NCBI GenBank assembly: GCA_043814055.1
Contig: JBDRKL010000012.1
Span: forward strand, 8,596-72,595
Source: an archaeon
Lineage (GTDB): Archaea > Undinarchaeota > Undinarchaeia > Undinarchaeales > JBDRKL01
Direction: 5' to 3'
Length of the DNA stretch: 64,000 nucleotides
A model generated the notes under the pieces. The model was not told the origin of the DNA, made no database searches, and worked only from the letters and a program-made list of their open reading frames with translations. The position numbers were made by a program, and so were the translations under genes. Below are positions 9,674 to 59,012 of the stretch, piece after piece. Position 1 is the first letter of the stretch; every line of letters starts with the position of its first letter.

Positions 9674-9723
9674 GGAGTAGGATAAAGGACAGAAGTATTT
9701 AAGGGTTTTTAAGTGAGAAGAAA

Positions 9724-9798
9724 TGCCCCAGCCGGGATTCGAACCCGAGTCTCCGCCTTGAAAGGGCGGAATGATTGGCCGGACTACACCACCGGGGC
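9724..9798 (-). tRNA. tRNA-Glu (anticodon UUC)
   Basis: GCCCCGG-TG-GTGTAGTCCGGCCAATCAT-TCCGCC-CTTTCAA-GGCGGA-GAC-TCGGG-TTCGAAT-CCCGG-CTGGGGC-A. No intron and no encoded CCA. Confidence 0.9.
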
Positions 9799-9990
9799 AG
9801 GTTTTTACCAATGTGCACCGAGATACAAAGCTTTTTTCGTCAACGTTTTTGCGAAGCAAAAAGGTTGGACTTCACACCACCGGGGCAACTTTATGTGCGC
9901 CAGGCAATGTACTTTTCTTTTGGTCAAGCTTTTCTTCGTAAAGAAAAGATTGCCGTTGAGTACACCACCGGGGCAACTTTAAGCTATAGG
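9799..9990 (-). repeat. two tandem 88-bp units, each starting with a copy of the tRNA-Glu 5' end (GCCCCGGTGGTGT)
   Basis: The exact 13-mer occurs at 9786-9798 (real tRNA), 9874-9886 and 9962-9974, a spacing of exactly 88 and 88 nt. Each unit has the tRNA 5' fragment, an A/T hairpin, TTGAC(C/G)AAAA, and a ~41-45 nt spacer. Confidence 0.8.
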
Positions 9991-10101: not shown

Positions 10102-10213
10102 TGGGCCCGTCGTGATTCGAACACGAGACCTCACGCTTTCGCAAGCGTGCCCGCATTTTGTGCGGAACACAGCCATATAAGGCGTGCGCTCCACCAGGCT
10201 GAGCTACGGGCCC
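10102..10213 (-). tRNA. tRNA-Ile (anticodon UAU) with 38-nt intron at 37/38 (intron about 10138-10175)
   Basis: GGGCCCG-TA-GCTC-AGCCTGGTG-GAGC-G-CACGC-CTTATA|intron|A-GCGTG-AGGTC-TCGTG-TTCGAAT-CACGA-CGGGCCC-A. The GGGCCCGTAGCTCAG start is typical of archaeal tRNA-Ile. The anticodon TAT reads from 10179-10177. Confidence 0.8.
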
Positions 10214-28877: not shown

Positions 28878-29055
28878 AGCTCAAGAATGGGACGCGGTTT
28901 TAATATAGTTTGCGCAAGAAAAACCTTAAATACGGGGAACAACACTGATAGTCTTACAAATGAAACTAAGTGAGTGTCTTCACAGCTAGAGAAATGATTT
29001 CACTTAGTTTGGATTCTGGAAAATTTTTAAAGAGCTTTAGCTGTAAAATTAAAGC

Positions 29056-29197
29056 AAAAAATGGCCCGGGTAGTTCATTGGCAACCTTTTTCTTTTCACA
29101 AAAGAAAAAGCTCGAACGCGCACAGCGCGTTGAGCAACTCGCTGTCGCGAGTTTGTTTGACCAAAAAGAAAACTTCGGACCGATTTGCGAAAAAAAT
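29056..29197 (+). repeat. 135-bp unit beginning with a 20-nt copy of the tRNA-His start region (pseudo 5' fragment), then a hairpin module (copy M4)
   Basis: AAAAAATGGCCCGGGTAGTT occurs at 29056-29075 and again at 29191-29210, where it is the real tRNA start. After the first copy comes CATTGGCAACC + CTTTTTCTTTTcacAAAAGAAAAAG + two GC hairpins (29110-29135, 29136-29153) + TTGACCAAAAAGAAAA (29157-). Confidence 0.8.
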
Positions 29198-29273
29198 GGC
29201 CCGGGTAGTTTAGTGGTTAGAATTGGAGACTGTGGATCTTCAGACGCGAGTTCAATTCCCGCCCTGGGCCCCA
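29198..29273 (+). tRNA. tRNA-His (anticodon GUG) with genome-encoded G-1, C73 and CCA
   Basis: G(-1)-GCCCGGG-TA-GTTTAGTGGTTAGAAT-T-GGAGA-CTGTGGA-TCTTC-AGAC-GCGAG-TTCAATT-CCCGC-CCTGGGC-C-CCA. One A.C mismatch in the T stem. Confidence 0.85.
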
Positions 29274-29276
29274 TTC

Positions 29277-29360
29277 AACCTTTTTTCCCTTGCGATTGGG
29301 GGAAAAAGCTTGACCAAAAATCAGGGGCGTTCGCTCGCTACGCTTGCGAAGCCCCACTTC
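29277..29360 (+). repeat. hairpin + CTTGACCAAAAA module (copy M5) plus a 32-nt GC hairpin in the hisS leader
   Basis: AACCTTTTTTCCCttgcgattGGGGGAAAAAG-CTTGACCAAAAA (29309-29320), then GGGGCGTTCGC..GCGAAGCCCC (29324-29355). Confidence 0.6.
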
Positions 29361-29378
29361 TTTTTACAGGTGATTTAG

Positions 29379-30668
29379 ATGGATAAATTTGAAGCCACCC
29401 GCGGAATGAGGGATTTCCTTCCAGAGGAGATGGAGAAGAGAAGGTATGTTATTGATATTATTAGGACGACCTTCAAGACCTATGGCTTTGGCGAGATTTG
29501 GACTCCTGCGCTTGAGAGCCTTGGGCTGCTAAGCGCAAAGAGTGGAGGCGGGGACGAGATTGCAAAGACAATATTCACGCTCAAGGACCAAGGAGGAAGG
29601 ATGCTCGGGCTCAAGTTTGACCAGACTGTTCCAACCTCAAGGGTTATCGCGAACAACCCGCAGCTTACAAAGCCATTCAAGCGATTCATAATCAGCCCGG
29701 TTTGGAGGTATGAGAGACCGCAAGCAGGGCGATATAGGGAATTCTGGCAGGCGGATGTGGATATTTTCGGCTCGAAAAACCCAGAGGCAGATGTTGAGAC
29801 TGTTGCGTGCACAGCCGCTGTTCTTACTGCGCTTGAGTTTGAGGAGTATGAGATAATCATAAACAACAGAAAACTGCTCAAGGGGCTTGCGATGCAGTTC
29901 GGATTCAAGGAGAACCAGGTTGTGGACCTGCAGAGGTGCATTGACAAGCTGGACAAGAACAGCGAGGGTGAAGTTGTGCGCGAAGCAGCTGAGAAAGGGC
30001 TTGACGAGGACTTGGTAAGGGACTTTATAGCCACGATAAGCATGGAAGGGAAGCCGGAGGATGTTTTGAAAAAGATAAAGCCAAGTTTGAAAGATACACT
30101 TGCGCTGGAAGGGCTTGGCGAACTAGAGGAGTTTATTTCACTTTCAAAGCCGTATGGCATTTATGAGAAGCTCAAGCTGAACTTGAGCATGGTAAGAGGC
30201 TTGGATTATTACACCGGCACGATTTTTGAGTTCAAGGCAACTGACGCCAAGATTGGCTCGTTTATGGGCGGCGGAAGGTTTGACAAGCTTGTTTCAGCTG
30301 CAGGCGGAGAAGCGATTGCAGCCACCGGGCTTTCAATAGGCGTGGACAGGCTTGTTGAAATTTTGAGAACTAAAGAGAAACTCAAGGCAAGCGGCGGGTG
30401 CAGGGTTCTTGTAGGCTATTTCCCTAACTGCAGGGAGAAAGCAATTGAGATTGCGCAGGGATTGAGGAAGGCTGGGGTTGAAACTGATTTTGACACAAAG
30501 CGCAGGAGCGTTTCAAAAGTTCTGGACTATGCGAACGCGAAGAAGATTCCTTACGTGGTTCTTGTTGGAGAGAAAGAGCTGAAGGAGAACAAGGTTGCGC
30601 TTAAGAATATGGAAACAGGAGAGCAGAAGTTGGTTAAGGAGAGCGAGCTGTTAAAAAGTTTAAAGTAG
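29379..30668 (+). CDS. hisS: histidyl-tRNA synthetase (complete, with anticodon-binding domain)
   Basis: 429 aa with class II motif 2 VWRYERPQAGRYREFWQ, the HisRS motifs RGLDYYTG and GGGRFDKL, motif 3 ATGLSIGVDR, and a C-terminal alpha/beta anticodon-binding domain. AGGTGAT SD. Confidence 0.9.
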   Translation: MDKFEATRGMRDFLPEEMEKRRYVIDIIRTTFKTYGFGEIWTPALESLGLLSAKSGGGDEIAKTIFTLKDQGGRMLGLKFDQTVPTSRVIANNPQLTKPFKRFIISPVWRYERPQAGRYREFWQADVDIFGSKNPEADVETVACTAAVLTALEFEEYEIIINNRKLLKGLAMQFGFKENQVVDLQRCIDKLDKNSEGEVVREAAEKGLDEDLVRDFIATISMEGKPEDVLKKIKPSLKDTLALEGLGELEEFISLSKPYGIYEKLKLNLSMVRGLDYYTGTIFEFKATDAKIGSFMGGGRFDKLVSAAGGEAIAATGLSIGVDRLVEILRTKEKLKASGGCRVLVGYFPNCREKAIEIAQGLRKAGVETDFDTKRRSVSKVLDYANAKKIPYVVLVGEKELKENKVALKNMETGEQKLVKESELLKSLK

Positions 30669-58247: not shown

Positions 58248-58897
58248 ATAAGAAATTTGACCAAATAAGATACATTGGAAAAGACGTTGCAACCGAGAAC
58301 ATTGTTCCAGGCAGCCGGGTATATGGTGAGAAGATTGAGAAGAAGGCTGGGGTTGAATTCAGGCTCTGGGACCCGTACCGCTCAAAGATGGCTGCAGCGC
58401 TCAGGCAGGGCGTCAAGACTTTCCCATTTAAGGAAGATTCAAAAGTTCTTTATCTCGGGGCTGGGAATGGAACCACGGTTTCGCACATTGCAGATGTTTG
58501 CAAACACGGTTTTGTTTACTCAGTTGAGTTCTCACCAAGAGCTGTGACTGACTTGATGATGGTTGCTGATGAGAGGAAAAACATAATTCCAATTCTGGCG
58601 AATGCGAAATTCCCAGAGAGATATGCAGAGAAGGTGCCGCAGGTTGATATTCTTTATGAGGATGTTGCGCAAAAGGGGCAGGTTGACATTCTGAAAGTGA
58701 ATGCGGACAAGTTCCTGAAGCAGGATGGGTATTTGTTTTTGATGGTTAAAGCAAGGTCAATTGATGTTACAAAGGAGCCAAAGTATGTGTTTGAAGTTGT
58801 GGCGAATGAATTGATGGAGAATTACAAAATTTTAGAACGCATTAAGCTTGACCCGTACGAGAAGGACCATATGTGCATTGTGATGCAGAAGAAATGA
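58244..58897 (+). CDS. flpA: fibrillarin-like rRNA/tRNA 2'-O-methyltransferase
   Basis: 217 aa with the SAM motif VLYLGAGNGTTVSHIAD. Confidence 0.92.
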   Translation: MNKKFDQIRYIGKDVATENIVPGSRVYGEKIEKKAGVEFRLWDPYRSKMAAALRQGVKTFPFKEDSKVLYLGAGNGTTVSHIADVCKHGFVYSVEFSPRAVTDLMMVADERKNIIPILANAKFPERYAEKVPQVDILYEDVAQKGQVDILKVNADKFLKQDGYLFLMVKARSIDVTKEPKYVFEVVANELMENYKILERIKLDPYEKDHMCIVMQKK

Positions 58898-58902
58898 TAC
58901 AA

Positions 58903-59012
58903 CCTTTTTCCGCGAAGGCGCGCAAAAAGCTCAAACACACAAAGTGTGTTGAGCAACACGCTGTCGCGTGTTTGCTTGACCAAAAAAATTCGCTTCGCTC
59001 GAAAGGTAGAAT
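58903..59012 (+). repeat. hairpin module (copy M7): CCTTTTT..AAAAAG hairpin, two covarying GC hairpins, then CTTGACCAAAAAAA
   Basis: AACCTTTTTCCGCGAAGGCGCGCAAAAAG + GCTCAAACACACaaaGTGTGTTGAGC (58929-58954) + AACACGCtgtcGCGTGTT (58955-58972) + TGCTTGACCAAAAAAA. TTGACC lies 37 nt before the ATG at 59013. Confidence 0.65.

Follow-up and report, generated by a model that had tools for sequence, protein, structure and literature searches.

A copied tRNA-His gene start and a 115-nt non-coding cassette in an Undinarchaeales genome: a probable insertion with long target duplication

Partial copies of tRNA genes in archaea are normally read as the scars of kilobase-sized viruses or plasmids. Partial tRNA-gene repeats border integrated elements of the SSV1/pNOB8 type, PYG1 of Pyrococcus yayanosii and, in Caldiarchaeum, a tRNA-Thr site (PMC9897764, PMC3293823, PMC8371274) with a 5' tRNA-Thr fragment 1.8 kb upstream (PMC3293823). 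The known archaeal fragments flank recombinase-encoding elements of 1.8-23 kb, and their repeats of ~44 bp are set by a fixed attP (PMC9897764, PMC3293823). In the genome described here, non-coding hairpin cassettes of ~100 nt give the same signature.

The MJRE elements of Methanocaldococcus are small palindromic mobile repeats. MITEs and other palindromic repeats, e.g., Correia/NEMIS, RPE and REP/BIME, have been reviewed (PMC2229807, PMC3184786), MITEs being marked by clear terminal inverted repeats and by a target duplication that is short and of fixed length, 2-10 bp (PMC2229807, PMC3184786). Casposons make a longer duplication, of 15 bp, by nicking at staggered positions and filling in; the duplicated DNA overlaps a tRNA-Pro 3' end, and the T-psi-C loop region takes part in recognition of the target (PMC5137440). 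In addition, archaeal tRNA introns have been transposed or acquired and tRNA genes disrupted (PMC4033280, PMC4390854). The mobility of C/D-box sRNAs (PMC6009581) was considered as well and set aside as not a close parallel. Our literature search found no description of such cassettes in Undinarchaeota.

The stretch of DNA analyzed here (the window; 64,000 nt, C12:8596-72595) is part of a genome of 979,685 bp in 14 contigs, with ~47% GC and an estimated completeness of 82%, in which many of the tRNA genes have introns. An exact 20-mer, AAAAAATGGCCCGGGTAGTT, was found at 29056-29075 and 29191-29210 of the window, at a spacing of 135 nt, and these two copies, both at tRNA-His, are the only ones in the whole 979,685-bp genome. 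Each comprises a 7-nt leader, the encoded G-1 (29063 and 29198, respectively) and positions 1-12 of tRNA-His, as a preliminary description of the locus had observed. The second copy is the start of an intact tRNA-His(GTG) gene with encoded G-1 and CCA (29198-29273, plus strand), identified by ARAGORN at 29199-29273 and by Rfam RF00005 with 57.2 bits. The first copy, on the same strand and referred to below as the stub, was not called as a tRNA by ARAGORN or Rfam. The repeat at tRNA-His is far beyond chance: we estimate the probability of a 20-nt exact repeat in a region of 520 nt at ~1e-7, and a copy of at least 12 nt of the locus's own 5' end within 400 nt upstream was present at only ~0.6% of 2000 random 75-nt loci. 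An assembly artefact was rejected as its source, the 115-nt spacer being unique and a comparable stub-plus-insert being present in four other genome records of the order.

Downstream of the intact gene, on the same strand, is hisS (29379-30668; ORF of 429 aa), the histidyl-tRNA synthetase gene, which served as the syntenic anchor and whose product is closest to the HisRS of a Candidatus Undinarchaeota MAG (62% identical). A location of tRNA-His directly upstream of its cognate hisS was seen across the order (window 29198-30668; L001, L083 and L085), and in the window hisS is followed by hisG-like and hisD-like ORFs. Because the two genes are only 14-24 nt apart in relatives, tRNA-His and hisS are probably co-transcribed. 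The gap is 105 nt here, compared to those 14-24 nt, and holds a second cassette (29274-29357, plus strand), consisting of a short variant, CAACCTTTTTT..AAAAAGCTTGACCAAAAA, and a GC hairpin, TCAGGGGCG..GAAGCCCCAC, with kin behind tRNA-Trp (a 30-nt stretch, 93%) and on C7.

Analyses of the 115 nt between the two repeat copies (29076-29190, plus strand) revealed no credible ORF and indicated that the insert is a member of a dispersed family of non-coding cassettes (alignments with z=29-39). It aligned to C3:23889-24003(-), which is just upstream of, or in the 5' end of, tRNA-Glu(CUC) (95 columns, 77 identical, z=34), to C4:51040-51150 (77 columns, 67 identical, z=39) and to C12:67493-67600, a copy between two protein genes (63 columns, 54 identical, z=29). 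The predicted fold of the cassette has a closing stem and three hairpins (-42 kcal/mol, z=-2.7), all of which were retained in the consensus fold of four cassette copies, where compensatory double changes were present in 9 of the 31 pairs of the whole cassette. Hairpin 1 (29086-29110) is terminator-like, a perfect 11-bp inverted repeat (CTTTTTCTTTT / AAAAGAAAAAG) with T5 and T4 runs, and in 17 genomes of the phylum the only other occurrence of its 25-mer, CCTTTTTCTTTTCACAAAAGAAAAA, is at the G003 tRNA-His stub. Hairpins 2 and 3 (29110-29153; GCTCGAACGCGC..GCGCGTTGAGC and AACTCGC..GCGAGTT), both kept in the four-copy fold, are followed by a TTGACCAAAAAGAAAACTTC box (29157-29176) that is at -42 to -23 from the intact gene, a TATA-like distance. 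The termini of the cassettes are fuzzy, and the sole terminal inverted repeat is the 5-bp closing stem, GCRAC / GTTTGC. A permissive Rfam 15 scan of 28880-29400 produced, tRNA aside, best matches of only 13-17 bits (E values no lower than 0.5), and the cassette belongs to no Rfam family by this test.

The preliminary description had taken the stub and the sequence behind it for the tRNA-His cassette with an internal deletion, on the grounds that the upstream copy continues into CATTGGCAACCTTTTT (29076-29091) and the real gene into CCATTCAACCTTTTTT (29271-29286). The short motifs it listed after both copies are indeed all present, each twice: CAACCTTTTT at 29082 and 29276, GAAAAAGCT at 29104 and 29302, and TTGACCAAAAA at 29157, within the cassette box, and at 29310. 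The upstream unit is also a true duplicate followed by a hairpin and a TTGACCAAAAA box, as had been described, but its reading as the same gene minus positions 13-72 is not supported. The sequence after the stub matched the gene's own 3' trailer only in the 11-nt TTGACCAAAAA (z=3.8), which is no better than its matches to the trailers of tRNA-Ile, Leu, Ser and Trp (z 2-4.5), and, despite the identity of the 20-nt repeats, the two trailers have unrelated loops in their hairpins. The apparent match to the 3' flank consists of motifs of 10-11 nt that are common to the whole cassette family and not specific to this gene; CAACCTTTTT occurs 32 times in the genome against ~2 expected, and the shorter motif AAAAAGYTTGAYCAAAAA occurs 18 times here against 0-2 in each of 40 relatives. 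In addition, CATTGGCAACC is the cassette's own left end, two Glu cassettes starting with CAACGGCAATC and AACGGCGACC. With a specific trailer match missing and CATTGGCAACC assigned to the cassette, the internal-deletion reading was therefore not supported.

Several other members of the family, and one further hairpin class, were observed outside the His locus. A long-variant cassette at window 58895-59010 (C12:67490-67605) is flanked by AGAAATGATA, which includes the stop codon of the upstream gene, and AGAATATGATA, which includes the start codon of the downstream gene; it looks as if insertion had duplicated an ancestral ATGA stop/start overlap. At C12:152935-153119, the 109-nt intron of an initiator-like tRNA-Met (A1..U72) opens, directly after the anticodon loop, with a short cassette, CAACCTTTTTCCGACCTTCGGCCGCAAAAAGCTTGACCAAAAAG; its start corresponds to CAACCTTTTT..AAAAAGCTTGACCAAAAA and includes CCTTTTTCC. 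One family is therefore present both in tRNA flanks and in an intron. Behind tRNA-Thr(CGU) (C8:32558-32780) and tRNA-Thr(UGU) (C10:138406-138660) there are two and three tandem CAAACTTTTTAGTAAAAAAGTTTGATCAAAAAC trailer units, with periods of 56 and 67 nt, which shows array expansion of cassette units. The second and more abundant hairpin class, found across the genome, consists of many CAAA-stem-loop-stem-TTG tandems joined by TTGCGCAAY and is partly common to hairpins 2 and 3 of the His cassette; in its examples (C4:24833, C4:41845, C8:32497, C12:9018 and C12:143519) the stems vary yet stay complementary.

Other genomes of the order, whose loci were compared by eye and by repeat finding, have the tRNA-His locus in both empty and filled states. 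The locus is syntenic across the order, with a divergent trxB-like gene, the conserved AAGTGAGTGTCTTCACAG, a TATA box, tRNA-His and hisS. An uninterrupted arrangement of TATA box, tRNA-His and hisS was found in L001/L100, G002 and G007; in L001/L100 it reads TTTTAAGT, ~35 nt, tRNA-His, 24 nt and hisS. A scan of metagenome contigs with HisRS returned nothing closer than 62% identity, and L100 equals L001 across the region read. G003, a member of the same genus as G007, has a stub, GGCCCGGGTGATC, and then a homologous insert, in the order ..aaatttGGCCCGGGTGATC, then tgagtgcgcCCTTTTTCTTTTCACAAAAGAAAAAcggcggcgAAAAAGAAAACTTCag..aaaatc, then GGCCCGGGTGGTCTAGTGG. Its breakpoint, at position 12/13, is identical to that in the window. 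Hairpin 1 is identical at 25/25 positions and the AAAAAGAAAACTTC box is common to the two inserts; the segment with hairpins 2 and 3 is absent from that of G003. In G004, G008 and G012 a different insert, of 38 nt, is bracketed by CAATAAAAATGGCCCGGAT, which amounts to a 19-nt duplication that is perfect in G008 and has 3 mismatches in G004. The leader variants CTG and ATG swap between stub and gene among these three genomes, which suggests exchange between the two repeat copies. Three families of the order have tRNA-His stubs, and at least two different inserts account for them. In G003, G004, G008 and G012, the DNA behind the stub is unlike their own tRNA-His 3' flank, which, like the uninterrupted site in the other relatives, speaks against a deleted gene copy. 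The "empty" site of G007 has a leader, ..acagaaaagaaaaagttt, that resembles the right part of the cassette, and it may therefore have arisen by secondary deletion. If the insert in the window and that of G003 are common by descent, the 20/20 identity of stub and gene here needs gene conversion or selection.

The palindromic AAGTGAGTGTCTTCACAG (window 28968-28985), between the divergent trxB-like gene and tRNA-His, is conserved nearly letter-for-letter in G003, G007, G004, G008 and G012, and as AAGGGATTGCCTTCACAG in L001, in intergenic DNA that has otherwise diverged. Candidate roles are a site for protein binding and a small RNA element.

To place the His locus among the other tRNA genes, we scanned all 40 tRNA genes called by ARAGORN for end copies of at least 12 nt, with 5' copies sought within 400 nt upstream. 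A copy of the 5' end was present upstream of 6 genes and a copy of the 3' end downstream of 7, compared to 0.5-0.7% of random loci. The single 5' copy found downstream (1/40) is a neighboring tRNA, and none of the 40 genes had a 3' copy upstream or a reverse-complement copy. The polarity is strict because only duplications that span a gene end leave an intact tRNA. The expectation in the preliminary description of a phenomenon general to tRNA loci was thus borne out, as was its count of duplicated 5' ends at three of the six tRNA genes in the window (Glu-UUC at 9723-9799, an intron-bearing tRNA at 10102-10213, and His). The genome-wide scan, the G007 data and the His sites of relatives agree that such loci are not rare and that the relatives' sequences are not unrelated.

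The inserts at tRNA genes are 14-250 nt in length and are hairpin cassettes of a few types, and the duplications vary between events from 13 to 31 nt. One cassette type has differing flanking duplications, -7..+12 at His and about -6..+17 at Glu(CUC). The type of insert also tracks the target: Ile and Ala-CGC, both with GGGCCCGT, carry GGAGCTCTCCGC.. inserts, and Leu-GAG and Tyr have in common ..ccgcaagcaggcggaSgttcct before AAATCC. The 3' duplications start mostly at position 57/58 of the T-loop (9/14). Comparable results were obtained for G007, which belongs to another family: end duplications were present at 7 of 23 scanned tRNA loci, all with the same polarity. In that genome one cassette (..CTTTTTCTTTTTGCGAAAAGAAAAAGGGCGG) follows both tRNA-Ile, with a 17-18-nt duplication, and tRNA-Glu, with a 27-nt duplication, and the 5' end of tRNA-Glu has tandem stub-plus-cassette units homologous to those at Glu-UUC of the present genome.

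A separate observation concerns tRNA-Ser(CGA) (C10:29028-29169 and downstream). The insert behind this gene ends in GCCGGAG, which is the 5' acceptor strand of the same tRNA and directly precedes the duplicated AATCCTGACTCCGGCGCCA. With these two sequences adjoining, a CCA-tailed mini-helix of the acceptor stem could form from the downstream fragment.

We think it likely that insertion of the 115-nt cassette near the start of the tRNA-His gene gave rise to a long target duplication, and the best explanation of the stub is that it is a by-product of this insertion rather than a decayed gene copy. In such an event, a structured non-coding cassette would have been pasted into the 5' part of the gene, and the 20-bp segment bounded by the two break points (-7 in the leader and +12 in the D-arm) would have come to stand on both sides of the insert. 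The resulting order would be the ancestral TATA box, a dead stub, the cassette, and an intact tRNA-His with only 7 nt of its old leader, with the second cassette between tRNA-His and hisS. The observations that argue for this reading are the identity of the stub to the gene start, the homology of the insert to cassettes that have different duplications elsewhere, the uninterrupted site in relatives, the strict polarity, and the recurrence. Exchange between the two repeats would presumably keep them alike. Splicing of the insert as a D-arm intron was rejected, given that a complete gene follows the insert and that inspection by eye identified no BHB at the junctions in the read-through fold.

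Our confidence in the enzymology of the insertion is much lower than in the event itself. Staggered breaks followed by gap fill-in appear to us a somewhat likelier source of the duplication than template switching by a polymerase. Fill-in is in keeping with the breakpoint preference and with a structured cassette, and polymerase template switching is equally compatible with the variable duplications of 13-31 nt, the mosaic inserts and the tandem arrays. Counting against cassette insertion, a duplication length that varies between events from 13 to 31 nt is unusual for one transposase. Profile searches of the 82%-complete genome produced no match for tyrosine integrase (PF00589), Cas1 (PF01867), Y1 HUH transposase (PF01797), reverse transcriptase (PF00078) or GIY-YIG (PF01541), so that the locus was not assigned to GIY-YIG hairpin cassettes, and for TnpB (PF07282) there was only a match of 16.5 bits, below the cut-off. 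We tentatively raise the possibility, on which we would not rely, that Undinarchaeales have an undescribed form of DNA movement in which structured cassettes are pasted at the D-arm or T-loop with 13-31-bp duplications, by none of the recognizable integrase, transposase, Cas1, HUH, GIY-YIG or reverse transcriptase enzymes, and in which the same cassettes supply the long tRNA introns of the lineage. If that were true, these loci would be living intermediates of archaeal tRNA-gene disruption, with displaced promoters, new leaders, introns and fragments.

An insertion of this kind would also have consequences for transcription of tRNA-His. A BRE/TATA-like box, AAAATTTTTAAAG (29020-29032, plus strand), is now before the dead stub, with its TATA core (29024-29031) 32-40 nt upstream of the stub G-1; the intact gene has TTGACCAAAAAGAAAA at the corresponding distance. 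TTTTAAGT is at about the same spacing before the intact tRNA-His of L001, and TTTAAAAG is upstream of the intact gene in G007. Based on these positions, we interpret AAAATTTTTAAAG as the putative ancestral promoter, and the TTGACCAAAAAGAAAACTTC box of the cassette is a candidate promoter as well. The intact tRNA-His would then be expressed either by read-through of the T5 run of hairpin 1 or from the A-rich TTGACCAAAAAGAAAA box. The iMet intron contains CCTTTTTCC, and T5 is therefore not an absolute terminator, making read-through from the old promoter possible. When the read-through RNA is folded, its minimum-energy structure has the stub paired to the 3' acceptor strand, a pairing that in this model would favor termination and re-initiation at the cassette box. 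A scan for sigma-70 promoters and intrinsic terminators, which is unsuited to an archaeon, gave one minus-strand hairpin match.

Among the alternatives to an element-specific insertion, the one that survives best, although we consider it unlikely, is template switching during replication or repair (FoSTeS/MMBIR-like). A strand stalled at the hairpin-prone D-arm would copy ~100 nt of a cassette elsewhere and return upstream of its departure point, producing a duplication and a templated insertion without a dedicated enzyme. The variable duplication lengths (13-31 nt) are consistent with this, as are mosaic inserts such as the G003 version without hairpins 2 and 3, the tandem arrays at Glu, Thr-CGU and Thr-UGU, breakpoints in the D-arm and T-loop, which are hairpin-capable in single-stranded DNA, and the finding of no mobility enzyme in searches for six families in the 82%-complete genome. 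However, the same cassette types recur, by our reading ~19 of ~27 family-A copies are within ~300 nt of tRNA genes, the 3' duplication starts are sharply preferred at T-loop 57/58, and the structure is conserved via compensatory changes. This recurrence, breakpoint preference and conserved fold look more like recognition by a factor than random switching.

It is improbable, in our view, that the stub and cassette are, whatever their origin, a selected regulatory unit, in which a short decoy transcript, begun at the old promoter and ended at the T-run, would insulate tRNA-His and hisS, or in which tRNA-His/HisRS output would be tuned by rivalry of the stub and the true 5' strand over the 3' acceptor strand. 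The presence of tRNA-His stubs in three families with at least two different inserts would fit such a role, together with the 20/20 identity of stub and gene, the pairing of the stub with the acceptor strand in the folded transcript and the compensatory changes in the hairpins. Against it, three relatives have neither stub nor cassette, the stub of G004 has 3 mismatches in 19, and the same architecture is present at many unrelated tRNAs and one protein-gene pair.

Direct repeats of a tRNA segment that bracket foreign DNA are the classical signature of attL/attR sites (PMC9897764; PMC3293823). The gene has been reconstituted here, the 3' duplications start in the T-loop, a known integrase crossover region, and the same hairpin is at tRNA-His in two families. 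We nevertheless regard it as quite improbable that a virus or plasmid with the tRNA-His 5' part as its attP was integrated and mostly deleted, or that a miniature element was mobilized in trans. The inserts, of 38-250 nt, have no ORF, a search of the 82%-complete genome for tyrosine integrase was negative, and the duplicated segment includes the locus-specific leader or trailer and varies in length. A fixed attP also cannot account for the occurrence of one cassette type at several tRNAs, each with its own duplication. Lastly, tandem duplication of the whole tRNA-His cassette followed by deletion of positions ~13-72 from the upstream copy is highly improbable: it would account for CATT after the stub where CCATT ends the real gene, and for the motifs shared by both trailers, but those motifs are generic, the loops differ completely, the best matches are to cassettes elsewhere (z=29-39 versus 3.8 for the own trailer), and the stubs of G003 and the G004 group are not followed by their own 3' flank.

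Cassette insertion with target duplication, our preferred reading, bears on how tRNA genes are broken and rebuilt. In two genomes of different families, roughly one tRNA gene in three has an end duplication, and the tRNA-His locus, with its empty and filled states across genomes of the order, offers a sequence-level system for studying the disruption and rebuilding of tRNA genes. The locus shows how a promoter can become cut off from its gene, and it suggests a route by which intron-like sequence reaches tRNA genes. Annotators of these DPANN genomes should expect decoy tRNA starts and displaced promoters to be common. A further question raised is what enzyme or replication process is behind target duplications of such length and variability.

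In comparison with the known systems, the outcome at these loci is like that of integrated elements and the size and copy number are like those of MITEs, and some defining features of each are lacking. As at integrated elements, an intact tRNA gene stands beside a same-strand copy of its end with foreign DNA between, 5' fragments are upstream and 3' fragments downstream, and 3' repeats begin in the T-loop. In contrast to them, the insert here is an ORF-less 115 nt, the repeat varies from event to event and includes locus-specific leader, and no integrase was detected. The cassettes resemble MITEs in being small, non-coding, multi-copy, dispersed, hairpin-forming, mostly intergenic and flanked by duplicated target, and in the possible presence of terminator-like or promoter-like motifs. 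They differ in having variable duplications of 13-31 bp, a strong tie to tRNA gene ends, and no cognate transposase found; as terminal inverted repeats they have only a 5-bp closing stem. REP/BIME with RAYT, or IS200/IS605, are further removed, with no Y1 HUH or TnpB above the cut-off here, and with duplications at these loci where those systems have none.

The casposon shares with the present events a long target duplication at a tRNA gene end. Unlike the cassettes it is multi-gene and has terminal inverted repeats and a fixed 15-bp duplication, whereas no Cas1 was found in the 82%-complete genome here and the His event is at the 5' end. Unlike an archaeal BHB intron, the His insert leaves the mature gene uninterrupted: a complete copy is regenerated by the duplication, splicing is unnecessary, and inspection by eye identified no BHB. 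The likeness to archaeal tRNA introns is that the same cassette family is inside the iMet intron, which links insertions in tRNA flanks with intron content.
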